Shown here: positions 1 through 64,000 of the stretch, in pieces | How the letters are laid out: the number at the start of each line of letters is the position of its first letter | How positions within the stretch are numbered: the first letter of the stretch is position 1 | Origin: a virus | Virus record (IMG/VR): IMGVR_UViG_3300031087_000014 | Reading direction: 5' to 3' (one strand) | DNA: 64,000 nt | Notes under the pieces: generated by a model | Told to the model about the DNA's origin: nothing | Database searches by the model: none | Seen by the model: only the letters and a program-made list of their open reading frames with translations | Made by a program: the position numbers and the translations under genes

Positions 1-39
1 AGTTTCAGTTCTTCTCGTCGTCGCTAATAGGAGATAAAG

Positions 40-252
40 GTGAAAGTAGGAAAGAAATATCAGATAATGGGGGCTATCTTTGACGATATAGCTCTACTAG
101 AAAATGCAAATATTTTCGAGTTGGTAGGTATCGAAGATAAAGGGACTAAAAATGAAGCGTACATTTTTAAGGGCGTATCCACTTCAAGGACGCAAGTATG
201 TCATAAGACTACTCAAGAGATCGGTTTGGCAATCATTCAAGAAGTAGGTTGA
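40..252 (+). CDS. hypothetical protein
   Basis: 70-aa ORF, GTG start after AGGAG RBS. Confidence 0.7.
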   Translation: MKVGKKYQIMGAIFDDIALLENANIFELVGIEDKGTKNEAYIFKGVSTSRTQVCHKTTQEIGLAIIQEVG

Positions 253-277
253 CTTTTACTCAGAGGGATCGTAAGAT
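249..277 (+). promoter_or_regulatory. sigma70-type promoter
   Basis: TTGACT-17 bp-TAAGAT; the -10 overlaps an inverted repeat at 262-283. Confidence 0.65.
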
Positions 278-306
278 CTCTCTTGTTAAGAGAAATCGGA
301 GGAAGT

Positions 307-885
307 ATGAAGACTATTCAAGATATAATGATGTTGTGGGCAGGAGTTATGACTGAGTTAAAAGATAACTTCCCCGACTATCACGCGATGATGAAGCGCT
401 TTGGGTATAAAGCGTGTGTCCGTGAAAGGAGAAATAATAGCTTTGGTTGGTGCAATCACAGAGAACGTATTGTGGCTATCAATAGATTCTTACATAAGAA
501 TAGTCAGGACGAAGCGATAATTGATACTATGTGGCACGAGATTGCTCACGCTATCGACTTCTGCCAGCGCGGTGTATCTGATCATAGCGCACCTTGGAAA
601 GCCATTGCAGAGGAACTTGGTGCAGTAGCTAAGTCTGCATCTAAACGTGCCGTAAAAGTCCAGTATAAGTTTGTATGTGCTTATCGTGAAAGTGATCGTA
701 GCGTTAAAATGCTCAGGGGCTATCACAGAAAACCTGCACACTACAAGCCAAACTCCGTTATGGCTGATACCTTTATGAAAGGTAAAAAAGAAGAGTCTAT
801 GGGAAAAGTTTGGTTGTATACTTGGGAAAAGTGGGTTACAATCTGTCAAATACTTGGGCAATCACCTTACAGAGAGGAGAATTAA
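307..885 (+). CDS. SprT-like zinc metalloprotease
   Basis: HEIAH zincin motif followed by DHSAPWK; ATG 307 after GGAGG. Confidence 0.75.
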   Translation: MKTIQDIMMLWAGVMTELKDNFPDYHAMMKRFGYKACVRERRNNSFGWCNHRERIVAINRFLHKNSQDEAIIDTMWHEIAHAIDFCQRGVSDHSAPWKAIAEELGAVAKSASKRAVKVQYKFVCAYRESDRSVKMLRGYHRKPAHYKPNSVMADTFMKGKKEESMGKVWLYTWEKWVTICQILGQSPYREEN

Positions 886-886
886 T

Positions 887-1435
887 ATGAAAGAAGATAT
901 GTTTAAAGGCGCACCAGCTTGGGCTACTATGGTAGAGGAATCCCGTAAGTTTATGGGTATGCCATTACGTGTGTGGACTGATGGCAAGAAGTATAAATAT
1001 GTCCCTGGCTACAACGGTTACGATAAATCCGGCAATACTTTTGATTTTGCGTGGGATATGGTTGGCAAGCGAGTTATTGCTGAGCGAAATCTTGAGGGTA
1101 AAGTTAAGACTTCCCGCAAGAAAGGGCCAAAGAAAACAGCCAAGACTGTACCAACTCTGGAGATCAGTTACACGGACGGTAGCAAATACAAAGTGAAAAA
1201 TCCTTTGACAATGATGTTGATTCCAGATTATGTTCTTCTTCTGCTGAAACAGAAGGGTGAAGCCGATGATGATGTTATTGAACAAGTTTCAGTTCGTATT
1301 AAAGCAGACAGCTTGGAGAAAATCCTGGTTAAATCACCAAACTTCGAGTCTTCTCTTTACTTCCAAAGCGGAGATGTGGTAGAGTTTATTAAAGGTACAC
1401 GGCGTAACGTTGTATCTGGTGAGTATAACTTTTAA
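887..1435 (+). CDS. hypothetical protein
   Basis: ATG 887 after GAGGAG; packed in operon. Confidence 0.75.
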   Translation: MKEDMFKGAPAWATMVEESRKFMGMPLRVWTDGKKYKYVPGYNGYDKSGNTFDFAWDMVGKRVIAERNLEGKVKTSRKKGPKKTAKTVPTLEISYTDGSKYKVKNPLTMMLIPDYVLLLLKQKGEADDDVIEQVSVRIKADSLEKILVKSPNFESSLYFQSGDVVEFIKGTRRNVVSGEYNF

Positions 1436-1450
1436 TTAGAGGAGACGAAT

Positions 1451-2563
1451 ATGACTAGCCCATTTCTGAGAGCAACACAATCTTCCCGTTCACGCAGCCC
1501 TATGGCTACACAAGAAAAGGAAGTAAAATCAGCACTGAATAATCCTCTGGTCGGTAGTCCGGTGTTCGCTCCGGCAGTGTCGGCTAAGCAAACAACTCTT
1601 CCGGCTGTTATGACAGAGGAAGATATTCAAGGTACAGGTGCAGCAGCAGGTCAGCAGATCAAGGCTGTAGCTTCACAGGTACTGAAACACCAACGTGCAA
1701 ACAATGGTGATGAACTGTCAAACCGTCTTAATGCTTTGGTCAAAGAAACAAAGCAACTTGATCCTAACAGTATGAAAAACTCGAAAGGGATCAAGAGGAT
1801 CTGGAAACGCATTCTGGGCATCAAGGAAGATATCTTTGAGCAGTTTGATACTATTGATGGTCGAATCAACGTTCTAGTGGGCGAACTGACTGAGGATCTT
1901 AAGCGTGAGAAAGATGGTCAGCATCAGCTTAAGCAACTGCGTGAGCAGGCTGGACATTATGCCCTGGCACTGAACCGTGATATCGAACTTCTCTCTGCAA
2001 ACTTAGAGCGTGAGCAGGCGACATTCGACAGTATCCCAGAAGAAGAAGTAGAGGCACGAGAAGAGAAACGTGGTACGATGGATCTGATTGAAACCCGTAT
2101 CAATGACTTGGCGGCACTTCGCCTGTTGATGGTTCAGTTTGGTCAACGTGTTAAAGGTATGGAAGAAGTTGGTCGTCAGCTTATCCGTGCAAGTAACAAC
2201 GTTCTCACTAACGTTATTCCAGCTTACACCGCAGCATTCTCTGCGTATGTACACAGTATGCGTCAGAAGAAAGCCGCAGAAGCGCTTAACAGCACGATTG
2301 ACGAGTTCAATAATGCTATCGCATTAGGTGGTGAACTGGCGTCTGCAAACCGCGTAGAAGCTGCACGTTTGGCTAATCGTCAGGTGGTAAGCATTGAGAC
2401 CTTAGAACGTGAGCAGGCTACACTTCTTAAGGATCTGGAAGCGATTAACGAAATTAATAACAATGCGCGTCAAGAACGTGTACAATACATCACTCGTGTG
2501 GGTGAACTGGAAGATAGCCTTGTTCAGACAATCCGCACTGGCTTAACCAATAAAGGAGTTTAA
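1451..2563 (+). CDS. TelA/KlaA-like toxic anion resistance protein
   Basis: 370-aa helical/coiled-coil protein with TelA-like layout (LNALVKETKQLDP, VLTNVIPAY, RQVVSIETL); lies near vWA and TerD genes. Confidence 0.7.
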   Translation: MTSPFLRATQSSRSRSPMATQEKEVKSALNNPLVGSPVFAPAVSAKQTTLPAVMTEEDIQGTGAAAGQQIKAVASQVLKHQRANNGDELSNRLNALVKETKQLDPNSMKNSKGIKRIWKRILGIKEDIFEQFDTIDGRINVLVGELTEDLKREKDGQHQLKQLREQAGHYALALNRDIELLSANLEREQATFDSIPEEEVEAREEKRGTMDLIETRINDLAALRLLMVQFGQRVKGMEEVGRQLIRASNNVLTNVIPAYTAAFSAYVHSMRQKKAAEALNSTIDEFNNAIALGGELASANRVEAARLANRQVVSIETLEREQATLLKDLEAINEINNNARQERVQYITRVGELEDSLVQTIRTGLTNKGV

Positions 2564-2564
2564 T

Positions 2565-2828
2565 ATGGAATCCATTAAGATTAGTAAGGTTGAAGGCACA
2601 GATCTGTATGCTCTTCAATACTCAGTAGAGCCTGACCTGATCTACCCAATCGGTGTTATGGTGTTGAAGGCTTTAGACTCACTGCCAGCCGATAATGATG
2701 GTATGCGTGTTAATATTGTTGAAACTCTGCTGGAGTGTCGAGATAAGTTAACAACTCTGCCTAACGATATTTTACCATTGGGAGAACTGATCTTTCACGT
2801 AGAGTACGAGGTACGAGATGCGCAATGA
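2565..2828 (+). CDS. hypothetical protein
   Basis: 87-aa ORF with AGGAG RBS. Confidence 0.7.
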   Translation: MESIKISKVEGTDLYALQYSVEPDLIYPIGVMVLKALDSLPADNDGMRVNIVETLLECRDKLTTLPNDILPLGELIFHVEYEVRDAQ

Positions 2829-3504
2829 TGTTGATCCGGTAATCGAGGGTACGGCTGAAAACTACTCTATCACGCATCCAGCCTACGGGCTGGTGCGGGT
2901 AACTCACCCTTCCGGTGGTCAGGTTAAGATGTTTGGTAGTGATCTGATTCACAATGAGCGCGTATGTCTTACCTTCTGTCTGGCAGAAGAAGATCGTCAC
3001 CTCAACAGTACTTGGTATCACGAGCGTGGACGCATTCTGGAAGTAGAACTGACTCACTCTCAGTGGGCAAGTATGGTTAGCTCAAGTATGGGCAGTCCTA
3101 CTCCTGTAACCTTTAAGTACTTCCGTGATGGGGATCTTAAGGTATTGCCTGGGATTGGCAAGCAAGATACTGCGAAACACAAAGCTAAACGTGAGTATGA
3201 TCGCAAACTAGCAGAAACGCTGGAACGCGGTGAGAAAGTGTTGGAGCAGATCGAACAACTGATCCTGAAAGGTAAAGCTGGCAAAAAAGATCTTGACGAA
3301 CTGAGAGGACTTATGCAACAATCTCTTGGTCGATTCAAGTCAGACACTACTTTCGCAGTTGGATGCTTCGAGGAAAGTATGGAAAGTCTTGTAACTAACG
3401 CTAAAATTGAGGTAGAATCTACTCTCAGTGCAATGGCAAAACGAATTGGTGCTGAGCACTTAGGTTTGAAGTTAGATACACAGTTACTTGAAAATAACGG
3501 TTGA
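2818..3504 (+). CDS. hypothetical protein
   Basis: 228-aa ORF overlapping the upstream stop. Confidence 0.75.
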   Translation: MRNDVDPVIEGTAENYSITHPAYGLVRVTHPSGGQVKMFGSDLIHNERVCLTFCLAEEDRHLNSTWYHERGRILEVELTHSQWASMVSSSMGSPTPVTFKYFRDGDLKVLPGIGKQDTAKHKAKREYDRKLAETLERGEKVLEQIEQLILKGKAGKKDLDELRGLMQQSLGRFKSDTTFAVGCFEESMESLVTNAKIEVESTLSAMAKRIGAEHLGLKLDTQLLENNG

Positions 3505-3529
3505 CACAGAGAACGGGGTGAGTTAAGCT
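3501..3529 (+). promoter_or_regulatory. sigma70-type promoter
   Basis: TTGACA-17 bp-TAAGCT; the -10 lies inside inverted repeat GGGGTGAG/CTTACCCC. Confidence 0.7.
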
Positions 3530-3562
3530 TACCCCACTAACCACAGAGAAGGAGAAATAAGA

Positions 3563-4345: not shown

Positions 4346-4379
4346 TTAAATACACATTAATAAATAAGGAGAACATAGA

Positions 4380-4979: not shown

Positions 4980-4985
4980 GATTTA

Positions 4986-5011
4986 AAAAGGGGCTTCGGC
5001 CCCTTTGTTTT
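4986..5011 (+). terminator. rho-independent terminator
   Basis: AAAGGGGC-TTCG-GCCCCTTT plus T tail. Confidence 0.8.
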
Positions 5012-5089
5012 ATGTAGTCGTTAGTGTTAGAATGCACTCTCGAAATATAGGAGGCTAGATTGTTAAACCCCCTGAAAGGAGAGAAAAAG

Positions 5090-5569: not shown

Positions 5570-5579
5570 GAGATAAATA

Positions 5580-5867
5580 ATGGAATTACTTGATACCTCT
5601 GTAGTGGCAAACGTGCTAGTTAATGGGATGACAGAAGAAGAAGTGTTCCAATCTCGCTGTAACTTGGAGCGTATGCTACCAGTGTTCGGGTTAAAACTGG
5701 AAGATGAAGACATTCTGTGGAAGATTGAATACATCGAACGGGATGAATATGTTATGCTATCCCTGTCAGTATGTATGGAGTACTGGAAACTCTACACAGA
5801 AAACAAAGAAGCCCTACATACGGGTATTACCGCTGCTCAGCCAGCTATCTATCGGGAGGTACACTAA
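5580..5867 (+). CDS. hypothetical protein
   Basis: 95-aa ORF with AGGAG RBS. Confidence 0.7.
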   Translation: MELLDTSVVANVLVNGMTEEEVFQSRCNLERMLPVFGLKLEDEDILWKIEYIERDEYVMLSLSVCMEYWKLYTENKEALHTGITAAQPAIYREVH

Positions 5868-9811: not shown

Positions 9812-9815
9812 GTAA

Positions 9816-10489: not shown

Positions 10490-12262
10490 TTGATTATTAA
10501 AAAATATGGACAAGAGGTTGATTTATCCAAGGAAGGTCACACTGGTTGCCCTCGGTGTATTAGCAAGGGTAGAGATAGATCCAAAAACAACCTTATGTGT
10601 TATGGCTTAGATAGTGATGGTGAACATAAAGGCGCTCATTGCTTTTCGTGCGAACTAACTATACCTAGTCAGCAATGGTTAAGAGAAAATGGTCAAGAAC
10701 TAGAAGAAGAGGAAGAAATAGTGGGAAGAGAATTCAACGCAGAGATTCACAAGAAACTAAAAGAAATTACTGGTACTCACCCTAAAAACTATCGTGGCAT
10801 TCGTGAGGATATTTCAAAACCTCTCGGTGTTCGTTATGAGTATGCCAGTGACGGCAGTATCCATCGAACCTACTACCCTGTGACCAAAGGATATGAGATC
10901 GCGGGTTATAAAGTTCGTGAACATCCGAAGGAGTTTGCACACCCTGGCCCATTGGGTGAAACTGGTAAAGAATGTGATCTGTTTGGTCAGTTCAAATACC
11001 GCAATGCTTCCGGTACAATTCTGATTGTTGGCGGTGAGCACGACCAGCTTGCAGCAGTTCAACTTCTGAAAGACAACGATCCAGGTGGTAAATACCCAGA
11101 GATTGCTGTAGTATCAGGAACTTGTGGTGAAACTTCACTGCACCGTCAGTTGCAAAGTCAGTATAACTTCTTGAATCAGTTCAAGAAAATCATTCTCTGT
11201 CTGGATAATGATAAAGCTGGTCAAGAGGCAATGGAGAAGTGCGTTAAAGTGCTACCTCGTAACCGTGTCTATGTGATGACTTTGGATTGTAAAGATCCCA
11301 ATCAAGCACTGGTTGACGGTAAGAAAGATCACTTTATGACTCAGTTCTTTAAGTCCAAGCTATACACTCCAGCAGGTGTCTATGCATCTAATATGCTGTT
11401 CGAAGCGGCGCTTGAATGTATGGATGCTCAGATTATCACCCTGCCTGCCTTTATGCGGGTTGCTGCAAATATGCTTGGTGGTGGTTTGGTTCGAGAAGAG
11501 ATTACTGTTATTCTGGCTAAAACCAGTATCGGTAAAACTCTGTTAGTGAACGAGGTAACGAAGCACATTATTGTGGAACATCCAGAAGACATTCTCGGTA
11601 TCCTGTCTCTGGAAGCGACATATAAGAAGTACTCTCGTAACCTGCTTTCCTCTTACCTGCATATTCCTCTGCATCGTAAGACTCCAGAAGAGCGTGAGGC
11701 TATTCTTATGGACAACGAGCAACGCATTCGTGCTTTCTACGAACGTCCAGACGGCACTCCTAAGTTCTTTGTGTGTGATGACCGTGGAGCTAGCGTAGAG
11801 AGCGTTAAAGAGAAAGTGCTGGAGATGGTTGTTCACTATGGCGTAACTATTCTGGTCATTGACCCATACTCGGATCTTCTGTCTGGTATGGATGTTCGTG
11901 AGCAAGAAGAGTTAGCTACTTGGCTGAAACGAATTATGAAAGAGTACGGCATCACCATTATCGTAATCTCTCACGTTAAGAAGTCTGCCAACGGCAACAA
12001 CGAGCACATCACCGAAGATGATACAATGGGTAGTAGCTTCTTGGCTAAAGGTGCGGGTATCACTATCGCACTGGAACGTGACAAGGCAGCGGAAGATCCT
12101 ATTGAACGTAACACCACAAACTGTTTCATCCTGAAAAACCGTGAGTTTTCTGAGACAGGTGCTGCTGGTAACTTCTACTACGATATCAAAACTGCAACTC
12201 TGCACGACAAAGAGCAGTACTTTAGCAATCCCGCTAACATTGGCGGCGATATGAAGTTCTGA
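10490..12262 (+). CDS. DNA primase-helicase (T7 gp4-like)
   Basis: Zn finger CPRC..HCFSC, TOPRIM GEHD and LDND..G, Walker A AKTSIGKT, VIDP, VISHVKK. Confidence 0.92.
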   Translation: MIIKKYGQEVDLSKEGHTGCPRCISKGRDRSKNNLMCYGLDSDGEHKGAHCFSCELTIPSQQWLRENGQELEEEEEIVGREFNAEIHKKLKEITGTHPKNYRGIREDISKPLGVRYEYASDGSIHRTYYPVTKGYEIAGYKVREHPKEFAHPGPLGETGKECDLFGQFKYRNASGTILIVGGEHDQLAAVQLLKDNDPGGKYPEIAVVSGTCGETSLHRQLQSQYNFLNQFKKIILCLDNDKAGQEAMEKCVKVLPRNRVYVMTLDCKDPNQALVDGKKDHFMTQFFKSKLYTPAGVYASNMLFEAALECMDAQIITLPAFMRVAANMLGGGLVREEITVILAKTSIGKTLLVNEVTKHIIVEHPEDILGILSLEATYKKYSRNLLSSYLHIPLHRKTPEEREAILMDNEQRIRAFYERPDGTPKFFVCDDRGASVESVKEKVLEMVVHYGVTILVIDPYSDLLSGMDVREQEELATWLKRIMKEYGITIIVISHVKKSANGNNEHITEDDTMGSSFLAKGAGITIALERDKAAEDPIERNTTNCFILKNREFSETGAAGNFYYDIKTATLHDKEQYFSNPANIGGDMKF

Positions 12263-42243: not shown

Positions 42244-44328
42244 TTACCAAGAGCGCATTCTTGACGGCATCTTAGGCATTGACGGCTTACCCAACTGAGA
42301 ACTAGCCCAACGAGTAGTAGCATTGATTGAAGGAATGCTCACAGCGTTAAACACCTGTTCACGTTGGATTGTGTTAAAGGCAGAAGCCACGGCATCCGGT
42401 AAATCATCCTTAATCGTTGCACTTGATCTTTCACCAGTAAATACTTCAAGTTCACGATAGAAGTGATCAAGAGTTTCTTGGTTGTTGAAAGAGTCTTCTA
42501 CAATGTAAACAAACCCATTCTGACAAGCACTACTGAATGGAATGAAACGTTGCAGTTTCTTTTTGTTGTTAGGCATTGCGTCTGGTTTGACATTGAATCC
42601 CTGTGCGATTAATTTCTTAGCCGATTCGGTGTATTCGATGATACCTGCACCAGATGGATCTTTAGGAAGTACAACAGTTACGTCTGTTCCGTCAATATTA
42701 CTCTGGTTTAGGATTAGCTTATCCCTATCGCCTGGTAGTCTGCGGAATCTTCCGTATACCTTGCTCTTCTCGTCGATTGCATCATAGTCATAATCCCCGA
42801 AGATATAAATGTTACCATCGCTATCTTTTCCGAGTTTAACCGAAGCCGTATAGTCAGGGTATTTATATTTTTCGGATGGAATAGATGCTGCTTTATCCCA
42901 ACCACGAACGTAAGTCATATTGTTAGGGATCTCAGAGTATTTGATTTTGTTCAACCAATCTCTCTGGAAATAACTTGAGGCTTGTTCACGAGCATACCAG
43001 CAACCATCAAGCAGACGTTCACGGTTAACCTTAGTCTGAGCTTTCAATGAAGCCAAGTAGTTTGGGTTAAGACGAATTAGCGCTGGGTTGTCAAAGATTG
43101 TACCACCAATGAAGACGAAAGTCTTAGGTGGAACATCAATAGTTTCTCCGGTGTTCTGGTTGTACTGACTACACAGATCAGGGTATAATTCCCGTAGCTC
43201 TTGCTCTGAATCAGAGAAAACAGGTTCATCGTTGTTGATGATGAAGTAAAGCTGTTTACCACACATCTCGTCTGTTGGGAAGCCTTTTTCGTCCAAGTAA
43301 GGAAGAACAAACTTCAATACCCAACTATCTGCATCAGGGTTGCACGTTGCTAGGCAGAAACTTGAGGTCTCAGATTCAGAACGCAAACGACCAATCAGAT
43401 ATAGGAACTGAGTGATACTGAAATGTGTAAGTTCGTCAAACCCTACCATCGAGTACTGTGTACCCTGGTGGTTTTGTTCTGCGGTTGATTCTAATTCCAA
43501 GTGGTCAAACTTAAGCTTACCACCTCGGGTTGATTGGAATTCAATCTCCATAGAAGATTCACGAACGTGTGGTTGCAGTGGTGCAAACAGTTTCTTAGCT
43601 TCTGTGAATAATCCCCCAGCGGATCTGTGTGCTTTAGTTGTTCTACGGAATAGAACGCCTTCAAACAACGGATCTTTAAATGCAAACTTCAAAGCTTTCA
43701 GGAGTAACAGACGACTCTTACCACTATTACCAGTGACAAAGGTATGACCTGCTCTACGAAGGATCAAGTAAGACGATGGAGTTTCGAAACAATATTTCAG
43801 ACCGTCTGTAGCCGGAGATTCAAAGATCTTCAAAGCTGTACTTGGTTTGCCTTTAATATTGAAAGGGATTCTTGTCCCGAAGAAAGTTTCTACGTATCCA
43901 CGAAGAGGATTTCCAGATTGTTGTAGTGCAATAAGATCACCAACAGCAATTTCGAAATGCTTCTTAGATTTTTTCTTCTTGTAAAATACGAAGCGATGCT
44001 CCATACTTAGTTCTTGATAAATACCAGCAGCGTTACTGATGCGGTGAAAGTTATCGTTTTTGATCTCTGTCTCGATAAAGTATGGCATCACCAGTTCCAG
44101 TTTCTTATTATCTGGGTTGTACTGATAGATCTTCTCGTTGTCATAATACTTAATCGGTTTCCATCCTTCTGCGGATAGATATTCTGTTTCTGCTGATACA
44201 CATCCAGCCGCACCGCCGTAAATCATTACGTCAGGCATACTCTCCATAGCTATAGTCTGCTTACCTTCCTGGGCATTGATCTGAATGTTATTTACGTTAA
44301 TCTTTTTCTTTGCTGCTGCTCTTCCCAT
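42244..44328 (-). CDS. terL: terminase large subunit (intein-containing)
   Basis: Walker A GGAAG/SGKS split by an insert, Walker B VGFDELT, ATCNP, nuclease WD.A and DD..DA. Confidence 0.93.
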   Translation of the reverse strand: MGRAAAKKKINVNNIQINAQEGKQTIAMESMPDVMIYGGAAGCVSAETEYLSAEGWKPIKYYDNEKIYQYNPDNKKLELVMPYFIETEIKNDNFHRISNAAGIYQELSMEHRFVFYKKKKSKKHFEIAVGDLIALQQSGNPLRGYVETFFGTRIPFNIKGKPSTALKIFESPATDGLKYCFETPSSYLILRRAGHTFVTGNSGKSRLLLLKALKFAFKDPLFEGVLFRRTTKAHRSAGGLFTEAKKLFAPLQPHVRESSMEIEFQSTRGGKLKFDHLELESTAEQNHQGTQYSMVGFDELTHFSITQFLYLIGRLRSESETSSFCLATCNPDADSWVLKFVLPYLDEKGFPTDEMCGKQLYFIINNDEPVFSDSEQELRELYPDLCSQYNQNTGETIDVPPKTFVFIGGTIFDNPALIRLNPNYLASLKAQTKVNRERLLDGCWYAREQASSYFQRDWLNKIKYSEIPNNMTYVRGWDKAASIPSEKYKYPDYTASVKLGKDSDGNIYIFGDYDYDAIDEKSKVYGRFRRLPGDRDKLILNQSNIDGTDVTVVLPKDPSGAGIIEYTESAKKLIAQGFNVKPDAMPNNKKKLQRFIPFSSACQNGFVYIVEDSFNNQETLDHFYRELEVFTGERSSATIKDDLPDAVASAFNTIQREQVFNAVSIPSINATTRWASSQLGKPSMPKMPSRMRSW
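43726..44202 (-). mobile_element. mini-intein (159 aa) in the terminase Walker A motif
   Basis: starts CVSAETEYL, block B SMEHRF, ends YCFETPS...FVTGN followed by Ser; no endonuclease motif. Confidence 0.9.
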
Positions 44329-45825: not shown

Positions 45826-46129
45826 TTTTATACCTGTTGATTAGAAAGTGTTCTATCTTGAATATAGCACGTATCTCTGATCCTTACAAGTTAAATCTTT
45901 TTGACAGTACCATCGTAAGTAGAGAACCCGCCGAAGCGGGAGCCGTTAGAACGAGATATACCCGTCTTCTCCTACTTTATTAACTTCCATATATAACCAA
46001 CGAGCGGTATCAACACCTACATCCATCTGGAGAGTAACCGAATAGAAAAGGTTGTTTCTCGAATCAATTCTGGTAGGGTGTCAGACATACAGAGGTTCCT
46101 TTAAGTAGGAGGTTAGTCTAAAATAGACA

Positions 46130-46160
46130 ATAAAAAACCCCTACCCAAAAGGGCAGGGGC
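46130..46160 (-). terminator. terminator ending the tRNA operon
   Basis: GCCCCTGCCC-TTTT-GGGTAGGGGT plus T run. Confidence 0.85.
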
Positions 46161-46164
46161 TTAA

Positions 46165-46308
46165 ACTTTGCCTGCGTTGAAGAGTCGCAGCCCTCTAGCT
46201 TGCCTTTCGGCTACTCTTTGAAGGAACTAGGCATTAGTCTTCGAAGATGGACACATAAAGTGTCCGTAGAAATCATACTAGGTATGTCTCTACACCGCTG
46301 GCGCGGAT
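46165..46308 (-). ncRNA. candidate structured ncRNA at the operon 3' end
   Basis: consecutive hairpins including GCC-GAAA-GGC, plus an AAGAGT/ACTCTT possible pseudoknot. Confidence 0.4.
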
Positions 46309-46309
46309 A

Positions 46310-46383
46310 TGGTTGCTCCAGCAGGTAACGATCCTGCTTCTGTCGCTTATCAGGCGACTGTAATACCTTTATACTATAGAGCA
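46310..46383 (-). tRNA. tRNA-Ile(GAT)
   Basis: GTCGC-CTGATAA-GCGAC; encoded CCA; T-loop ATCGTTA. Confidence 0.85.
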
Positions 46384-46389
46384 ATTGAT

Positions 46390-46470
46390 TGGCACGTAGG
46401 TGATGATTCGAACACCTAAACTAACGGGTTTGGAAGCCGTCTCCTGACCACCAGGATTAGTGACCCACGT
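46390..46470 (-). tRNA. tRNA-Trp(CCA), atypical
   Basis: loop TTCCAAA, G73, CCA end; aberrant D region and mismatches in anticodon and T stems. Confidence 0.55.
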
Positions 46471-46477
46471 ATTTATT

Positions 46478-46556
46478 TGGTGGAGAATAAGAGACTTGAA
46501 CTCTTCTGGTATCCTCGGTGCAAGCGAGGTGTCCACTCCTGGCAGACCCATTCCCC
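46478..46556 (-). tRNA. tRNA-Ala(TGC)
   Basis: G3:U70; CCTCG-CTTGCAC-CGAGG. Confidence 0.9.
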
Positions 46557-46561
46557 TAATT

Positions 46562-46706
46562 TGGCATCGTAGAAAGGAATCGAACCCCTCAGAGTAGGCG
46601 ATCAACTCTACCTGTGACCCTCATCACTTGGGAGATTAGCTACATCACCACCTCCGTCGAGGAAGTATCTCGTAACCATCTTTCCTTTGCTTTGTATCAC
46701 TACGAC
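46562..46706 (-). ncRNA. 145-nt tRNA-like RNA A
   Basis: acceptor GTCGTAG/CTACGAT-G-CCA and T-arm with TTCGATT enclosing a multi-hairpin insert. Confidence 0.65.
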
Positions 46707-46730
46707 ATTTTATTTGGTGATCATTTCATT

Positions 46731-46816
46731 TGGTACATCAGGTGAGACTCGAACTCACACGTCACAAGGACACTGGAACCTAAATCCAGGGCGTCTACCA
46801 ATTTCGCCACTGATGC
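46731..46816 (-). tRNA. tRNA-Leu(TAG)
   Basis: class II; CTGGA-TTTAGGT-TCCAG. Confidence 0.92.
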
Positions 46817-46823
46817 ATTTGTT

Positions 46824-46890
46824 TAGTGGAATCGTGCAGATTCGAACTGCATCCGGCTCCCTACGGGAACCAGTCACCCAAATCAATTCC
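46824..46890 (-). ncRNA. 67-nt minimal tRNA-like RNA (tmRNA-TLD-like fold)
   Basis: GGAATTG/CGATTCC acceptor, stemless D loop, one 9-bp hairpin, perfect T-arm, ends ACTA. Confidence 0.6.
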
Positions 46891-46897
46891 GAGTGTT

Positions 46898-46979
46898 TGG
46901 AAGCGAGAGCGGAAGTCGAATCCGCAATTTTCAGGGTATGAGCCTAACGTGATCTATATATCCGTTTCACTATCTCGCT
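46898..46979 (-). tRNA. tRNA-Met(CAT) (initiator/elongator/Ile2 status unresolved)
   Basis: TTAGG-CTCATAC-CCTGA; enlarged D loop; U73. Confidence 0.8.
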
Positions 46980-47063
46980 ATTGTTAAATCAGCTTTAAAC
47001 TAAAAGCATTATCCACGGCCCTATCAGACTCCTATCTTCAATTAGGGAATCGTAGCCTTGATA

Positions 47064-47136
47064 TGGTGCAGATGCAAGGATTCGAACCTCGAACAAACAC
47101 CTTCGTAGAGTGTTGCCTGTCCATCAGGACACCTGC
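47064..47136 (-). tRNA. tRNA-Arg(ACG)
   Basis: ACACT-CTACGAA-GGTGT; CCA end. Confidence 0.8.
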
Positions 47137-47141
47137 AAAAA

Positions 47142-47216
47142 TGGTGCGACCTGCTGGTAACGATCCAGCCTTTCTGCCTTTTCAGGGCAGCACACATCCG
47201 TCTATGTCAAAGTCGC
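47142..47216 (-). tRNA. tRNA-Phe(GAA)
   Basis: CTGCC-CTGAAAA-GGCAG; T-loop ATCGTTA. Confidence 0.85.
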
Positions 47217-47250
47217 TTTGAAACCGATATCATCTTCGATTTCTATTGTT

Positions 47251-47328
47251 TGGTCAGTGCAGGGTGAATCGAACACCCGACCTCCTGCTCCCAAAGCAGG
47301 CGCTGCTACCAGGCTGAGCTATGCACTG
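47251..47328 (-). tRNA. tRNA-Pro(TGG)
   Basis: C1:G72; CCTGC-TTTGGGA-GCAGG. Confidence 0.92.
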
Positions 47329-47334
47329 AATATT

Positions 47335-47411
47335 TGGGGTGGCTAATGGGACTCGAACCCACATAGAACTGCATCACAGGCAGCGTCATTAAGCCATTAT
47401 GATATAGCCAC
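47335..47411 (-). tRNA. tRNA-His(GTG)
   Basis: GTGGCTA/TAGCCAC-C-CCA; loop CTGTGAT; no encoded G-1. Confidence 0.9.
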
Positions 47412-47443
47412 ATCTTAGTGCTCTCATTGAAAACACTAAAATT

Positions 47444-47518
47444 TGGCAGAGGTGAGAGGAGTTGAACCTGCTGCTACGGGAGTCAAAGGCCCGTGTGCTA
47501 CCATTACACCACACCCCT
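47444..47518 (-). tRNA. tRNA-Gln(TTG)
   Basis: loop CTTTGAC, G73, CCA. Confidence 0.85.
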
Positions 47519-47524
47519 AGTATT

Positions 47525-47669
47525 TGGCGAACAGGAAGGAGTCGAACCTTCGTACACATCCTTTGGCGAGGCTATGTATTCTTGAATGCCCATACTAATT
47601 ATGTTTTGTTAGTCAAACAAGCGCCAACTTGCGAACCCTAACGCTACACTTTCATATTGCATCTATCCG
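47525..47669 (-). ncRNA. about 145-nt tRNA-like RNA B
   Basis: T-arm GAAGG-TTCGACT-CCTTC and CCA end; 5' CGGATAG can pair with CTGTTCG; no anticodon arm. Confidence 0.55.
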
Positions 47670-47675
47670 ATAATT

Positions 47676-47747
47676 TGTTGAAGCTAGAAGATAAATCTTC
47701 ATTTGTCAATCTCGGAAGTGACAAGTTTTGCATTAAACTATAGCTTC
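47676..47747 (-). pseudogene. degenerate tRNA-like element
   Basis: perfect acceptor GAAGCTA/TAGCTTC, enlarged anticodon loop, non-consensus T-loop, ends AACA. Confidence 0.5.
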
Positions 47748-47753
47748 TTTTTT

Positions 47754-47841
47754 TGGTATCGTGGACGGGATTCGAACCCGTAAGCAGAAAACTGCGCCAG
47801 ATTGAAAGTCTGGTTACTTAGGCCAATTTGTATACCACGAT
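47754..47841 (-). tRNA. tRNA with Glu anticodon (TTC) on a class II long-variable-arm body
   Basis: CCAGA-CTTTCAA-TCTGG, variable arm GCAG-TTTT-CTGC, A73. Confidence 0.85.
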
Positions 47842-47847
47842 ATAATT

Positions 47848-47924
47848 TGGAGCGAGATATCGGATTCGAACCGATGACGAACTGCTTGGAAGGCAGACAC
47901 TCTACCAGACTGAGTTAAACTCGC
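47848..47924 (-). tRNA. tRNA-Gly(TCC)
   Basis: GCG start, U73, loop CTTCCAA. Confidence 0.9.
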
Positions 47925-48050
47925 AATGTTGAAGGGCTAGCTGTGTGCTGCATATAGAGACATTGCACACCCACGCTGTAAATATTCTCGTTGGAAAACA
48001 CTTACAGAGATCTCTACTGGTATCCAGTTATTCCCCTTCTTGGGATACTC

Positions 48051-48101
48051 CGCGCTACGCTTCACAGCGTTTCGTCTTATTTCAAAGACTCATCAGGCGC
48101 G
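48051..48101 (-). ncRNA. type I hammerhead ribozyme
   Basis: CGCGC CUGAUGA GUCUU-UGAAAU-AAGAC GAAA CGCU-GUGA-AGCG UA GCGCG: complete core and three Watson-Crick stems. Confidence 0.92.
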
Positions 48102-48434
48102 TTTGCTTGATAATATACGATCACGTAGACCTTTTATGTGCCGTCGCGGTCACAACCTGTTATGATAAATCACAGTGCAGGTAGGGGAGAGGGTATAACA
48201 TTTCTGCTATCTCGTGTCGCCCTCTCTAAACAACCTCCATCACTAAAGACTGGACGCTATTGTTATTTGTGGGACAGTGACGGATATCCCTTTGCTGACT
48301 AGGCTACGTTCGGGACTGCTACCTTACAATGTTACAAGCTGTTGCGAATAACTCTGCTCGGTGCTCTCGACAAGAAGTACCCGCTGATACTATGCTCTTG
48401 TCATCCATACTCGCGGTCAAGCTTTCTGGTCATC

Positions 48435-48510
48435 TGGTGCTTGCAGCAGGACTTGAACCCGCGACCCACTGATTACAAAACAGTAGCTCTACCAACTGAG
48501 CTATACAAGC
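48435..48510 (-). tRNA. tRNA-Thr(TGT)
   Basis: loop TTTGTAA; canonical D and T arms. Confidence 0.9.
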
Positions 48511-48511
48511 T

Positions 48512-48685
48512 TTATCTTAATGGAATACCTTTGTATTCTCTTGAACGTATCAGTGCTTCTCTTCGTTTACGAGCTTCACGTTTTACGTTGTTTGGTGAAC
48601 GAGGATATTCACTGTAGACTTGAAAAGTTCTATTAACTTCTCTTGGTTCATCAAAGGAACCTATGGTCTGCTTCTGGAATGTCAT
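48512..48685 (-). CDS. small basic hypothetical protein
   Basis: ATG 48685 after AGGAG; lies between tRNA genes. Confidence 0.6.
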   Translation of the reverse strand: MTFQKQTIGSFDEPREVNRTFQVYSEYPRSPNNVKREARKRREALIRSREYKGIPLR

Positions 48686-48700
48686 ATCATTCTCCTGTAT

Positions 48701-48778
48701 TGGCGATCCTAGCAGGACTCGAACCTGCAACCGGTGGATTAACAGTCCACTGCTCTAACCAATTATAGCTATAGAATC
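48701..48778 (-). tRNA. tRNA-Asn(GTT)
   Basis: GTGGA-CTGTTAA-TCCAC; G73. Confidence 0.92.
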
Positions 48779-48784
48779 ATTGTT

Positions 48785-48869
48785 TGGTGAAATCTACTTT
48801 TCGAGCTTGTATCCCCGAAGGACTGAGTGATATAGATCACGCCATCTCGTCTTCCCTTATTTCGATTTC
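48785..48869 (-). ncRNA. 85-nt CCA-ended non-tRNA
   Basis: GAAATC/GATTTC-A-CCA terminal stem; internal hairpins including a C-TTCG-G loop; no T-loop. Confidence 0.5.
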
Positions 48870-48875
48870 ATTATT

Positions 48876-48957
48876 TGGTGGGGCTGCCTGGATTCGAACC
48901 AGGGCGTGGTATGCCTGATTTACAGTCAGGTGCGTTCGGCCTCTCCGCCACATCCCC
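48876..48957 (-). tRNA. tRNA-Tyr(GTA)
   Basis: CCTGA-CTGTAAA-TCAGG; A73. Confidence 0.92.
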
Positions 48958-48976
48958 TTAAACTTTATTTATCAAT

Positions 48977-49005
48977 ACTATATCATAAAAGTATTCAGAA
49001 GTAAA
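48977..49005 (-). promoter_or_regulatory. sigma70-type promoter within the tRNA cluster
   Basis: TTTACT-17 bp-TATAGT with TG extension. Confidence 0.6.
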
Positions 49006-49025
49006 GATTTATTTTACTTTTTGTT

Positions 49026-49102
49026 TGGTGCATCGCGGAGGATTCGAACCTCCAGTATTCTGATTAAAAGTCAGATGCCTTATCCAGTTTAGCTAGCGAT
49101 GC
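49026..49102 (-). tRNA. tRNA-Lys(TTT)
   Basis: TCTGA-CTTTTAA-TCAGA. Confidence 0.92.
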
Positions 49103-49103
49103 G

Positions 49104-49197
49104 TGGAGGAGAATATCAGACTTGAACTGATACGCCGCGTTTCCGCGACTACTGAGTGTTTAGCAAACACTTCCCTTACCGTTAGGGTTAATTCTCC
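49104..49197 (-). tRNA. tRNA-Ser(GCT)
   Basis: AGTGT-TTGCTAA-ACACT; long variable arm; U73. Confidence 0.88.
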
Positions 49198-49238
49198 GTT
49201 ACTTCTTATCGGTGTGATTTCTCACTCAATATCTTAGT

Positions 49239-49314
49239 TGGCGGGGATAGAGGAAATCGAATCCTCGGCTCCGCAGTGACAGTGCGGTATTTTTACCAAC
49301 TAAACTATATCCCC
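49239..49314 (-). tRNA. tRNA-Asp(GTC)
   Basis: CCGCA-CTGTCAC-TGCGG; G73. Confidence 0.92.
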
Positions 49315-49320
49315 TTAATT

Positions 49321-49411
49321 TGGAGGAAGGTAATGGAGTCGAACCATCATCGGCTATTAACCGATGGGCTGGTTTTCAAGACCAGTTACTCACCGCTGAG
49401 TCCTACCTTCC
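49321..49411 (-). tRNA. tRNA-Ser(TGA)
   Basis: CTGGT-CTTGAAA-ACCAG; long variable arm; U73. Confidence 0.88.
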
Positions 49412-49452
49412 TTTAAGTAGTTGTTAACTAACAATCTTCTCTACTTAATACC

Positions 49453-49481
49453 AATGTACCACGTATTTGATTGTCTGTCAA
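49453..49481 (-). promoter_or_regulatory. sigma70-type promoter
   Basis: TTGACA-17 bp-TACATT with TG extension. Confidence 0.7.
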
Positions 49482-49498
49482 CAACTATTTTAAACTAT

Positions 49499-49678
49499 TT
49501 ACTGCTTGGTAGAACGAGCGCGTTCACGCTTAGTTTTACCAGTACGGATGCGGTGAGACACTTTCTTCACTTCGCCGTTGATGGTAATTTCAACTGGCTT
49601 ACTTTCAGTCTGAGTAGACTTGCTCTCAAACTGGAAAGGCTGAATGATTTTGTCTACTGCGCTTACTTTCTTACCCAT
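49499..49678 (-). CDS. small basic hypothetical protein
   Basis: MGKKVSAVDK..., AAGGAG RBS. Confidence 0.65.
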   Translation of the reverse strand: MGKKVSAVDKIIQPFQFESKSTQTESKPVEITINGEVKKVSHRIRTGKTKRERARSTKQ

Positions 49679-49877
49679 TATGTCTCTCCTTATATGATTT
49701 ATTTTTAAATTGTGCCTCTCTGTCGCCATAAGCGAGGCTACTTACTATGATCGGAAAACAAAAAGTTACAATAACTTTTAAAAACGATGGCTTGTATATT
49801 TCATTAAGTTGTGCTCGACAAGAAGGCTAGTCTACAAACGCTACAACTTTAAATCAACGCATATACCAGACGCAAAC

Positions 49878-49954
49878 TGGCACTCCGTGAGGGATTCGAA
49901 CCCCCAACCTAGAGAGTAGAAATCTCTTGCGCTATCCAATTGCGCTAACGGAGC
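49878..49954 (-). tRNA. tRNA-Arg(TCT)
   Basis: AGAGA-TTTCTAC-TCTCT; A20; canonical arms. Confidence 0.92.
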
Positions 49955-49990
49955 AAATATTCTCTTTAACCTTGTTGGTCAGTGAGGTAA

Positions 49991-50176
49991 CTATACTACA
50001 GTTTCAGTAATAAAGTCAACATCTTTTTTAAACTTTCTTTTCTTGTTCCCAAAAATAACTCCACATACAGAGCACTTCTGACCTGGAGCTACTAAATCTC
50101 TATCGCAGCCACACCATACTCGCACTTTCTTTGGTGACTTGGCCTTTACTCTATTCGAATGTCTTTTGTAAGTCAA
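49991..50176 (-). CDS. small basic Zn-ribbon-like protein
   Basis: WCGCD...KCSVCG; TTG start after GGAG. Confidence 0.55.
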   Translation of the reverse strand: MTYKRHSNRVKAKSPKKVRVWCGCDRDLVAPGQKCSVCGVIFGNKKRKFKKDVDFITETVV

Positions 50177-58520: not shown

Positions 58521-58529
58521 GAGGATGAA

Positions 58530-58886: not shown

Positions 58887-58895
58887 GGAGTAATT

Positions 58896-59810: not shown

Positions 59811-59811
59811 T

Positions 59812-60834: not shown

Positions 60835-60847
60835 GAGGAGAATTAAA

Positions 60848-61972
60848 ATGCAAGTAACTGACTTCCTGAAAACACCTGGTAACTCTCTGACCCTGTTAAC
60901 TCTGTCTACAGGCATAAAAGTGAAAGAATATCCAGAAGAGGGCTTATACGTCCTAAACTATGACCAGATAGATAGTCCAAAGACACATCCTCTGGTTATG
61001 GAGTGCCGAGCACTGATCCTTGACAGGGAGTTTAATGTGGTTGCTCGTTCATTTGACCGATTCTTCAACCTGAATGAAGCGCCGGATACACAGGCGCATT
61101 TAGATTGGGATATTGCTGAGATTGCTGATAAAGTAGATGGTAGTCTAATCAAACTGTACTACTGGAACGGTGCTTGGCGCTTCTCTACTCGTGGCACAGC
61201 ATTTGCTGAAAGCCAGTGTATGAATAGTGAATACACATTCCACGATCTTTGCGTCAAAGCTTCTAACGCTAGTTATATGGAAGAGGTAGAGGCGTCAGCA
61301 GAACTGGCTGATCTTGACCAGGGAGTTACATACCTACTGGAGCTTACTTGTCGTGAAAACCGAGTGGTAACAGTATATGAGGGCTATCATCTGCACTTCT
61401 TAGGTGCTCGTCGTAATGACACTGGTGAATATGTGACTGTCCCTAATAGTGCATTATGGGTGATGAACTGGAAAGCTGTTAATAAGTATAAGTTTAACAG
61501 TGCTCAAGCTTGTAAAGAGACAGCCGAAAAGCTTCCTAATCTGGCAGAAGGTTATGTTGTTTACCAGAATGGCATCCCTGTTTGTAAGGTGAAGTCTCCA
61601 GCATACGTTGCTGTCCACCATCTCCGAGGTAACGGTATCCCTTCTTTGAAGCGTATTGTTGATTTGGTTGCTGTGGGTGAAGAAGACGAGTATCTTACTT
61701 ACTTCCCAGAGGACAGAAAGTACTTTGATCCGGTGACTCAAGCTAAGGCTTGGATTATCAATCAGGCTGATGCTATGTGGCACGTAGCTAAAGATATTGA
61801 GGAACAGAAGAAGTTTGCCATTGTGGTGAAAGATCTGTCCTTTGCTTGGTTGCTGTTTCAAGCAAGAAAGGTAAACAAGGAGCCGTCTGAGGTGTTCAAC
61901 TCCGCTCCGCTGGAGAAGCGATCTAAGACAATCCTGAACTATGTCGAAAAAGCAGGGAATGCTTTGAAATAA
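60848..61972 (+). CDS. RNA ligase, Rnl1 (T4 RnlA-like) family
   Basis: ECRALIL, SFDRFFN, KVDGSL, TRG, EGYV, KVKS..Y. Confidence 0.88.
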   Translation: MQVTDFLKTPGNSLTLLTLSTGIKVKEYPEEGLYVLNYDQIDSPKTHPLVMECRALILDREFNVVARSFDRFFNLNEAPDTQAHLDWDIAEIADKVDGSLIKLYYWNGAWRFSTRGTAFAESQCMNSEYTFHDLCVKASNASYMEEVEASAELADLDQGVTYLLELTCRENRVVTVYEGYHLHFLGARRNDTGEYVTVPNSALWVMNWKAVNKYKFNSAQACKETAEKLPNLAEGYVVYQNGIPVCKVKSPAYVAVHHLRGNGIPSLKRIVDLVAVGEEDEYLTYFPEDRKYFDPVTQAKAWIINQADAMWHVAKDIEEQKKFAIVVKDLSFAWLLFQARKVNKEPSEVFNSAPLEKRSKTILNYVEKAGNALK

Positions 61973-61981
61973 GGAGGAAAA

Positions 61982-62386
61982 TTGAAGAATTTCTATATCA
62001 TTCGTGGTGTATCTGGGAGTGGCAAGTCCACTCTCGCTAAAACAATGTCTGAGGCTCTTGGAGCTTCACATTTAGAAGCTGATATGCTGCTATACAATAA
62101 CCAAGGAGAATACGTCTGGACAAAAGAAGGCGTATCTGAGGCACATCGACAGACTGCGATTCATCTGTATCACTTAATGGAGTCAGGTGAGTCTAATATA
62201 ATTCTGTCCGATACCTCTGCAAAACAAAAAGATATGCAAAAATACCTTGATCTGGCTAAAGAGAAGGGTTACACTACGACAGTGATTGTAGTTGAGAACC
62301 GTCACGGCGGTAAGTCCATTCACGATGTAAGCGAGGAAACACTAGCTAAACAACGTGATCGTATCCGAAGCACTATTTCACTCTAA
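61982..62386 (+). CDS. polynucleotide kinase-like P-loop protein
   Basis: RGVSGSGKSTLA, EAD, SIHDV; follows the RNA ligases. Confidence 0.75.
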   Translation: MKNFYIIRGVSGSGKSTLAKTMSEALGASHLEADMLLYNNQGEYVWTKEGVSEAHRQTAIHLYHLMESGESNIILSDTSAKQKDMQKYLDLAKEKGYTTTVIVVENRHGGKSIHDVSEETLAKQRDRIRSTISL

Positions 62387-62397
62387 GGATAAAATAT

Positions 62398-62631
62398 ATG
62401 TTGATTAAAGAACTTAGTCCTGGTACAGTATACAAACTGAAAGACGAACACTTTATTCAAAACAAACTGATGGTGATTGCAGTCCCATATGACATTGAAA
62501 TTGTCGATAAAGAGTTTGGGGCACCTGTTTGTGCTGGACTAGCGTCTATTGATTTGGTAACATTCGAACTCGTTCAGTGGCAAGGCCACGAAGAACAAGA
62601 AGCAACTTTACTTACAGAAGGAGATGAATAA
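62398..62631 (+). CDS. hypothetical protein
   Basis: 77-aa ORF in operon. Confidence 0.65.
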   Translation: MLIKELSPGTVYKLKDEHFIQNKLMVIAVPYDIEIVDKEFGAPVCAGLASIDLVTFELVQWQGHEEQEATLLTEGDE

Positions 62632-62864
62632 TGTCAACAGCAATCTATGTACGTGGTGAACGTGGTGATCAGAACCTGTTTTCTTTCAACGATGATGTTT
62701 CTATCTACGATATTCGTCGTGAGATGGAAGATTTTATCCGCGAAGTACGAGGCTTTGTTCTGGCAGAGTTCCTTATCAGTACAACCCGAGGTGATTACTG
62801 GTATATGGACATTGAAGGGCTGGTGAATGATATTGGTGAGTTTTCTGTGGAGATGAACGGCTAA
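62631..62864 (+). CDS. hypothetical protein
   Basis: coupled ORF with AGGAG RBS. Confidence 0.65.
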   Translation: MSTAIYVRGERGDQNLFSFNDDVSIYDIRREMEDFIREVRGFVLAEFLISTTRGDYWYMDIEGLVNDIGEFSVEMNG

Positions 62865-63061
62865 TGCATACTGTTCCCGATTTTGAGGTCGGGAATATCG
62901 TCAAGCTACTATCTGGCGGTGTTCCAATGACTGTTCAAGAAGTCTTCGATAATATGTGTAGTGTTATCTGGATGGATTTGAAAGGCGAGATGAAAACTAC
63001 TCGCGTTTATAAATCTGTGTTACGGCATCTGAATGACGAGGAGTATCAATGGAACAAGTAA
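62864..63061 (+). CDS. YodC/DUF2158-like protein
   Basis: F.VG.IVKL.SGG.PMTV...C.W. Confidence 0.7.
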   Translation: MHTVPDFEVGNIVKLLSGGVPMTVQEVFDNMCSVIWMDLKGEMKTTRVYKSVLRHLNDEEYQWNK

Positions 63062-64000
63062 AAACAACCCTATATGCTTTAAACAAAGATGAAAGCTTTC
63101 AACAGTGGAAGGTATTCACTGTGGGCAGCACTATTGTTGTAGAGTTTGGGAAACTCGGTGGTAAGATTCAAGTTAAGCGCACGGAAGCTAAACCTAAGAA
63201 TGTAGGTCGAGCAAATGAAACAACAGCCGAGCAGCAAGCAGTACTGGAAGCTATTTCTAAATGGGAAAAGCAGGTTCGTACTGGATACCGTGAATCTACC
63301 GAAGAGCTTGAAACTGTCGAGCAATTCTCTCCGATGCTTGCTCACGATGGGAATAAGCGTAGCCACGATATTGTGTATCCTTGTTATGTTCAGCCGAAGC
63401 TGGATGGTTTACGTTGCCTGGTTACTTTTGATGTATTTGGTAATCCTATTTTCAATAGTCGTGGAAATAAGACATACCCAATCCAAGGAAAGATAGCCGA
63501 ACAAATGACAGAGTTGCGTGACAAGACGATGAATACGATCTTTGAAAATCGCACACCGATGTTTGATGGTGAAGTTTATCTACACGGGCTGAGCCTACAA
63601 AAGATTGTAGCTCTGGCTAAGAAGTGGCGTACTCACGATGAAATTGAGATCGAAATTGATAAGGATTTCGAGGCAGATAAGAAACGTCGAGCAAAAGCTA
63701 TTGCAGCAGGGGAAACTGTATGGAAGAACTTTGCTAAGCGCGAGATTAGCGTGGAAGTAGAGCCAGTACGTGACACTGATCGATACAATGGTTATGAGAG
63801 TGCGGATCTCCAGTTCCATATCTTCGATATTCCTGATTCGAAGAAGAAATGGTACGTCCCTAAACCAGATGACCAGGTAGAATGGGCTGATAGTCGATAC
63901 ACTGATCTATTCCTCATTGGGCTGGAAGCTAGTGGTATGTCTCACTTACGTTTTGTTAAAGGTAAGGTGTTAGAGACAGAAGAGGCTGTTAAGCTTTACA
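63049..64000 (+). CDS. ATP-dependent DNA ligase (partial, runs off window)
   Basis: ATG 63049 after GAGGAG; PMLAH, YVQPKLDGLRC, SRG, FDGEVY.HG, FHIFD; absent from the ORF track because there is no stop in the window. Confidence 0.9.
   Translation, partial: MEQVKTTLYALNKDESFQQWKVFTVGSTIVVEFGKLGGKIQVKRTEAKPKNVGRANETTAEQQAVLEAISKWEKQVRTGYRESTEELETVEQFSPMLAHDGNKRSHDIVYPCYVQPKLDGLRCLVTFDVFGNPIFNSRGNKTYPIQGKIAEQMTELRDKTMNTIFENRTPMFDGEVYLHGLSLQKIVALAKKWRTHDEIEIEIDKDFEADKKRRAKAIAAGETVWKNFAKREISVEVEPVRDTDRYNGYESADLQFHIFDIPDSKKKWYVPKPDDQVEWADSRYTDLFLIGLEASGMSHLRFVKGKVLETEEAVKLY

Follow-up and report, generated by a model that had tools for sequence, protein, structure and literature searches.

Complete absence of CATG from the genome of an uncultured Stephanstirmvirinae-like phage, probably through avoidance of host restriction

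Introduction

Virulent double-stranded DNA (dsDNA) phages can eliminate orthodox Type II restriction sites completely, and 7.1% of the phage/Type II-site pairs in one survey were classed as "eliminated" (Rusinov et al. 2018, PMC6286503). Staphylococcus phage K, for example, has lost all GATC sites from its ~140-kb genome, which allows it to avoid Sau3A (PMC6532042). Here we describe the loss of another tetranucleotide, CATG, from a 64,000-nucleotide stretch of DNA (the window) of the virus record IMGVR_UViG_3300031087_000014, and from the complete 141,261-bp phage genome to which the window belongs. CATG is the recognition site of the REBASE prototypes NlaIII, FatI, CviAII and Hin1II. In the chlorella-virus CviAII restriction-modification (R-M) system, which is directed at this word, the enzyme cleaves the DNA of the host, and the virus protects its own by methylation.

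The case resembles phage K in that a large virulent myovirus is wholly devoid of a 4-bp palindromic Type II site that is expected hundreds of times. It differs in the word, CATG instead of GATC; in the host group, which is probably plant-associated Enterobacterales; and in the cognate host enzyme, which is known for phage K and only inferred here. On the other hand, the loss described here can be shown to be limited to one young clade, and it is accompanied by the loss of about 30 other sites. As for the CviAII virus, the target word is the same and the viral genome must be immune to CATG cutting. Whereas that virus retains its sites and encodes both the nuclease and a methylase for CATG, we found no such nuclease among the genes scanned, the sole methylase is strain-specific, and immunity consists in having no sites at all.

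Results

CATG is absent throughout the genome

A sequence-only reading, based on checks of parts of the window, had suggested an apparent total avoidance of CATG, while GATC, GGCC, CCGG and GCGC occur. Exact counts bear out both statements. On both strands the window contains no CATG, against 255.6 ± 15.7 copies expected from dinucleotide-preserving shuffles and 180 under a maximal-order Markov model (z = −16.7, the lowest value among the 256 tetramers); the four control words are present in 302, 45, 53 and 88 copies, respectively. The complete genome, a single contig, is likewise devoid of CATG, with 409 copies expected under the Markov model (z = −25) and a Poisson probability of zero occurrences of ~e^-409. 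Neither intergenic and other DNA outside open reading frames (ORFs), where 30 copies are expected, nor the tRNA array contains the word, which shows that the purge reaches beyond protein-coding DNA. The sequence was found in 20 runs from 14 studies, and an assembly artefact is ruled out by contigs of other clade members that were assembled independently from different samples and are equally CATG-free. The absence of CATG is real, genome-wide and far beyond chance.

The genome accommodates the loss mostly by silent codon choice

Codon usage was analyzed in a longest-ORF gene set of 233 ORFs that covers 89% of the genome. Histidine preceding a codon that starts with G is encoded by CAC 180 times and never by CAT, whereas CAT accounts for 55% of the His codons elsewhere. 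Codons of the form NCA are likewise missing before TGN (0 of 196, compared with 35% elsewhere), and C-ending codons before ATG (0 of 956, compared with 22% elsewhere). The same holds at gene starts, where C directly precedes none of the 152 ATG start codons but is found before GTG or TTG starts in 12 cases. The most over-represented tetramers in the window are CATT and AATG, the one-step products, or "scars", of CATG destruction. None of the codon-context biases is present in the CATG-containing sister phage G2. With synonymous recoding in all three reading frames and a purge that includes non-coding DNA, selection is on the DNA word and not on the protein, and CATG has been lost mostly by means of silent codon choice. 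There is nevertheless a minor cost at the protein level: His-[VADEG] dipeptides are found at 0.66–0.69 of expectation in CATG-free genomes, compared with 0.88 in G2, and a small share of the purge is thus paid in amino acids.

Avoidance is confined to one clade and is still maintained

The phage, which is uncultured, is a myovirus of virulent type and of the Stephanstirmvirinae kind, with a G+C content of 43% and an estimated completeness of 96% (CheckV). Its nearest cultured relative is Klebsiella phage 05F01 (Stephanstirmvirinae; terminase 80% identical), followed by Escherichia coli phages of the Phapecoctavirus/Justusliebigvirus kind (terminase about 70–72% identical). When relatives were placed by marker genes, contigs with a terminase or polymerase about 94–100% identical to that of the phage were CATG-free, with the exception of a single site. 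The observed and expected counts are 0/243 for G1 (83.5 kb, 83% nucleotide identity to the phage genome), 0/62 for L141 (82% identity), 0/20 for L010, 0/23 for L113, 0/57 for L118 and 0/4 for L120. The single exception, and the only CATG seen in the clade, is found in L008 (IMGVR_UViG_3300007767_000059), whose terminase is 100% identical. It is located between the terminase and portal genes, within a segment of ~330 bp (L008:3170-3500) that is non-homologous to the present genome, which suggests recently acquired DNA in which the purge is still incomplete. Relatives with terminases 65–83% identical retain CATG at 0.25–1.1 of expectation; the observed and expected counts are 13/14 for L011, 105/165 for 05F01, 473/589 for G2, 62/61 for L017 and 21–26/56–62 for PD06-like phages.

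We analyzed the turnover of tetramers within the clade by aligning G1 and L141 to the phage genome and counting the words that are present in one genome only by virtue of a single substitution, with expectations derived from the observed substitution spectrum. No such difference involves CATG, although 172 are expected for G1 and 56 for L141; the other 15 palindromic tetramers show 40–288 differences each, at observed/expected ratios of 0.44–1.22. The zero turnover of CATG implies that new sites were cleared away for as long as the clade has been diversifying. The avoidance is therefore clade-specific and kept by ongoing purifying selection across 17–18% DNA divergence. Among 40 listed strain variants from four plant metagenomes none creates a CATG, with just 0.7 expected.

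About 30 other restriction sites are eliminated

We extended the counts to 123 Type II and Type IIS prototype sites whose expected copy number is 8 or more, and regarded a site as depleted when it was found at less than 0.35 of expectation. Thirty-three of the 123 sites are depleted in the genome, about 30 of them to 0–1 copies. The lost palindromes include CTGCAG (0 observed/43 expected), GGATCC (0/30), CAGCTG (0/21), CACGTG (0/20) and TCCGGA (0/25), and further losses comprise GGTACC (0/15), GRGCYC (0/41), GGTNACC (0/20), GGWCC (1/69) and CCSGG (1/33). Asymmetric words have been lost as well: CTGAAG (0/99), ACTGGG (1/32) and GATGTC (1/56).

The set of lost words differs between lineages, as expected from differing host R-M repertoires. 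The PstI, BamHI, KpnI, PvuII, BspEI, PmlI, BanII, BstEII, CCSGG and GATGTC sites are lost both in the CATG-free clade and in G2 (also G002 or L024-L031; IMGVR_UViG_3300014004_000001, 153 kb, terminase 71% identical). The losses of GGWCC, CTGAAG, ACTGGG, GTGCAC and CGATCG are largely limited to the CATG-free clade, with CTGAAG and GGWCC lost independently in a few other relatives (L114, L119). G2 in turn has eliminated CTAG (0/249), and the XbaI, SpeI and AvrII sites have near-zero expectation in that genome as a consequence. The asymmetric hexamer GATGTC/GACATC is eliminated in G1 (2/34), in G2 (0/48) and in the Pantoea podoviruses L142 (0/22) and L143 (1/22), in addition to the present genome. 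We know of no prototype enzyme for this word, and its loss may be the mark of an uncharacterised restriction specificity in Pantoea.

The hosts are likely plant-associated Pantoea or Erwinia

The runs in which the sequence was found derive from phyllosphere, rhizosphere, plant and silage metagenomes. The tail protein encoded in the window (Table 1) has its best phage matches in Erwinia phages Stean and PEp14 (47% identity) and in Pantoea phages (36–38%), where the homologues are annotated as exopolysaccharide (EPS) depolymerase. In 401 Enterobacterales species genomes the best match of the depolymerase (52%, E 1e-232) is located on the 235-kb Pantoea alfalfae plasmid NZ_CP082293.1. The matching region (L127, 8–28 kb of the plasmid) is phage-like and of low G+C content (44%), carries a TipJ tail protein, an integrase and ParB, and may be a phage-plasmid or the remnant of one; the depolymerase match itself contains one in-frame TGA.

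Pantoea phage LIMElight (L142, NC_019454.1) has lost GATC (0/172) and contains no CTGAAG, ACTGGG, GATGTC, GTGCAC, CTGCAG or TCCGGA; the unusual asymmetric avoidances of CTGAAG, ACTGGG and GATGTC, together with those of several palindromes, are thus common to LIMElight and the CATG-free clade. In LIMElight-like viral contigs (L164-L167, L170), GATC, ACTGGG, CTGCAG and TCCGGA are lost in all, and CTGAAG, GTGCAC and GATGTC in most. According to a silage study, Stephanstirmvirinae ranked with the most abundant virus groups of fresh grass, and Pantoea accounted for almost 40% of the community there (PMC10146946). Habitat, depolymerase, shared avoidances and the silage study together make plant-associated Pantoea or Erwinia the likely host. 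The genome also carries rmlBACD, but RmlA was rejected as a host marker; it is too conserved, with best matches scattered across phyla, and gave only an Enterobacterales handle.

Phage-encoded nucleases and methylases

The sequence-only reading had pointed to a nuclease or methyltransferase elsewhere in the genome as a possible CATG agent. Genes of both kinds are present, but those with a clear family assignment are strain-specific insertions. The only DNA methyltransferase is a D12/Dam family protein (genome 32221-33075; closest solved structure DpnM), and a profile search detected neither N6_N4 (PF01555) nor C5 (PF00145) methylases in the genome. It resides in a 2.5-kb cassette outside the window (G000:C1:32218-34766; L007, L002:15221-17708), together with genes for a 337-aa protein and a 186-aa ORF. 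The cassette is present in L141 and missing from G1, where the junction is clean. The HNH endonuclease gene of the window is inserted just upstream of the primase-helicase gene, and G1 is contiguous across the site. Since G1 is equally CATG-free with neither the cassette nor the HNH gene, neither is the cause of the avoidance, and we reject both the D12 methylase and the HNH endonuclease as the CATG agent. The HNH gene probably encodes a homing endonuclease. G1 has an insertion of its own, of ~400 bp, between the polymerase and helicase genes, and the overall pattern looks like homing-endonuclease traffic.

A CviAII-like R-M system would include a cognate methyltransferase; here the sole methylase is strain-specific and would find no CATG in the genome to modify. 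The 337-aa protein encoded next to the methylase belongs to no Pfam or PADLOC family and has only 4 homologues. Its structure model is poor (pLDDT 63), and the matches to ParB/sulfiredoxin-like folds are weak, all with E above 0.06. Neither the family searches nor the model support a nuclease, and the protein was rejected as a candidate restriction enzyme. It displays invariant QR and DGNTR motifs, and in the distant relatives L139 and L140 its homologue adjoins an N6_N4 methylase, such that the pair is kept while the methylase type is exchanged.

A second, weak HNH match, at ~35.0 kb of the genome, has a counterpart in G2, which retains CATG. In a Pfam and PHROGs scan of the accessory genes of at least 140 aa, the sole nuclease was the strain-specific HNH protein, and no restriction-endonuclease family was detected. 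Among the larger genes common to the present genome and G1 but not G2, two were searched and have homologues in CATG-containing phages; the remainder match known enzyme families or PHROG families from other cultured phages. Thus, among the larger genes that were scanned, no nuclease present in all CATG-free members was found.

Other features of the window

Besides the genes listed in Table 1, the window encodes a Mu-type portal, a family-A DNA polymerase, NAPRTase and two RNA ligases. The large terminase, of T4 type, has an N-terminal extension of ~200 residues preceding the Terminase_6N domain; its homologue in Klebsiella phage 05F01 is annotated with an N-terminal endonuclease domain. The tRNA array (window 46000-50000) shows many skips and replacements in contigs of four plant and silage metagenomes, including a skip of 1,123 bp (47362-48486) in three runs, and is structurally variable between strains. 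Outside the window, the otherwise virulent-type genome contains a short ORF of the tyrosine-recombinase/integrase family (193 aa; L001:3587-4168, plus strand; genome 3587-4168).

Table 1. Positions of the features discussed, in window coordinates
Feature	Position	Strand	Remarks
CATG-free stretch	1..64000	.	Part of the wholly CATG-free 141,261-bp genome; window = G000:C1:40889-104888, minus strand
HNH endonuclease, 223 aa	9816..10487	+	phrog_374, E 1e-50; no counterpart in G1 or G2
Primase-helicase	10490..12262		HNH gene inserted just upstream
Tail protein, 856 aa	18731..21301	-	Residues ~190-850 are an EPS depolymerase; host indicator (Erwiniaceae)
Large terminase	42244..44328	-	Terminase_6N; marker for placing relatives and delimiting the CATG-free clade
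tRNA array, 18 tRNA genes	46310..49954	-	ARAGORN; CATG 0

Discussion

Based on these observations, we consider it probable that the phage lost every CATG under CATG-specific restriction by its hosts. Phage DNA entering a cell with unmethylated CATG would be open to cutting by a CATG-specific restriction endonuclease present in the host population. The enzyme would most likely be of the orthodox Type II class and share the specificity of NlaIII, FatI or CviAII. Selection would then favour mutations that abolish a site and remove those that create one, with sites being lost mainly by synonymous codon choice and in a minority of cases by amino-acid change. In all testable features the loss matches the known pattern of classic restriction-site avoidance. 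The sequence-only reading had proposed strong selection by a CATG-specific agent, either a host restriction system or a nuclease or modifier encoded by the phage. Strong selection is upheld by a loss that is total, mostly synonymous, maintained, and set among about 30 other lost Type II sites. As for the agent, host restriction fits the evidence, whereas the phage-encoded version is unsupported, with the methyltransferase and the HNH gene on insertions that CATG-free G1 does not have.

Several observations weigh against host restriction as the cause. None of the candidate hosts yielded a CATG-specific restriction enzyme, in searches that applied no CATG-enzyme profile, and the host is itself inferred; extra D12 methylases do exist in Pantoea-like genomes. 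CATG loss is seen in none of 4 cultured Pantoea/Erwinia phages and in none of 40 other viral contigs with related EPS depolymerases, and the stretches of Pantoea-like genomes that were sampled show no CATG depletion (ratio about 0.9). Finally, most small phage genes have no known function, which leaves room for an agent encoded by the phage. Given that the Pantoea and Erwinia phages, the depolymerase-bearing contigs and the Pantoea-like DNA sampled here retain CATG, the pressure seems to come from the particular strains that the clade infects and not from the whole genus, although the same null results leave a small space for an explanation intrinsic to the phage.

Such an explanation would be a CATG-specific nuclease of the phage's own, for instance one that degrades host DNA, with self-protection achieved by having no sites; in effect, a CviAII-like strategy dispensing with self-methylation. 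Total absence is the outcome that lethal self-cutting would produce, the trait follows the phage lineage and not the presumed host genus, in that no unrelated phage with a related depolymerase has lost CATG, and the genome has two HNH-type genes and many small ORFs to which no function is assigned. We nonetheless find this quite unlikely, because both the HNH gene of the window and the D12 cassette are missing from G1, the second HNH gene has a counterpart in CATG-containing G2, and, of the larger genes shared with G1 but not with G2, the two searched occur as homologues in CATG-containing phages and the others fall into known enzyme or PHROG families. The scan of the accessory genes detected no restriction-endonuclease family, and a single phage nuclease cannot account for the other sites, about 30, lost from the same genome. 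The more specific proposal, that an unrecognised small nuclease of the clade cuts host CATG and that self is told from non-self by site absence alone, with no modification involved, we regard as very unlikely; we know of no phage described with such a strategy.

A host defence of another class might instead read CATG: a Type IIG or IIS, a Type III, or an undescribed system with a CATG core. The elimination of CTGAAG, ACTGGG and GATGTC indicates that the lineage responds to non-orthodox systems, and Type I and IIG sites are normally not avoided in one survey (PMC6286503). Still, a palindrome of 4 bp is typical of what orthodox Type IIP enzymes recognise and no data require a system of another class, which makes this possibility unlikely. 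NlaIII, FatI, CviAII and Hin1II are Type IIP enzymes of precisely this specificity. A cause unrelated to defence, be it biased mutation, constraints that translation places on C-ATG contexts, or an artefact of sequencing or assembly, is least credible and is effectively refuted by the turnover, reading-frame and non-coding results. Some background bias is conceivable, since CATG is mildly under-represented in several relatives (ratios 0.4–0.8), but a turnover of 0 against 172 expected is beyond mild bias, the purge is equally complete in all three frames and in non-coding DNA, separate assemblies from several samples and studies give the same picture, and close outgroups have normal CATG counts.

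Host restriction is thus our preferred explanation, and it places the clade close to the pattern of the survey by Rusinov et al.: most of the depleted words are sites of orthodox Type II enzymes, the phage belongs to the non-temperate dsDNA kind, and CATG falls in the "eliminated" class (compositional bias below 0.1). The clade departs from that survey in eliminating the asymmetric words CTGAAG, ACTGGG and GATGTC, of which at least CTGAAG is of the Eco57I/AcuI type, a Type IIG site, and Type IIG sites were not found to be avoided there. Moreover, the survey pairs each phage with the R-M content of its host, whereas here avoidance is read from the phage genome alone. Literature searches for phages that avoid CATG, or for methylation of CATG in Pantoea or Enterobacteriaceae, turned up no relevant report.

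The finding reveals no new mechanism. It is among the cleanest total losses of a tetramer, with 0 of about 400 expected copies, and the turnover counts are direct evidence of continuing selection. The list of lost words is a fingerprint of the restriction enzymes that a lineage has met and can help to assign hosts to uncultured phages; in the present case, the fingerprint ties the clade to Pantoea phage LIMElight by means of CTGAAG, ACTGGG and GATGTC. For the use of phages on plants, the clade represents a lineage naturally resistant to many Type II systems. The analysis further predicts that the plant-associated hosts of the clade, presumably Pantoea or Erwinia, commonly carry a CATG-cutting enzyme, which has so far not been pointed out in these bacteria.

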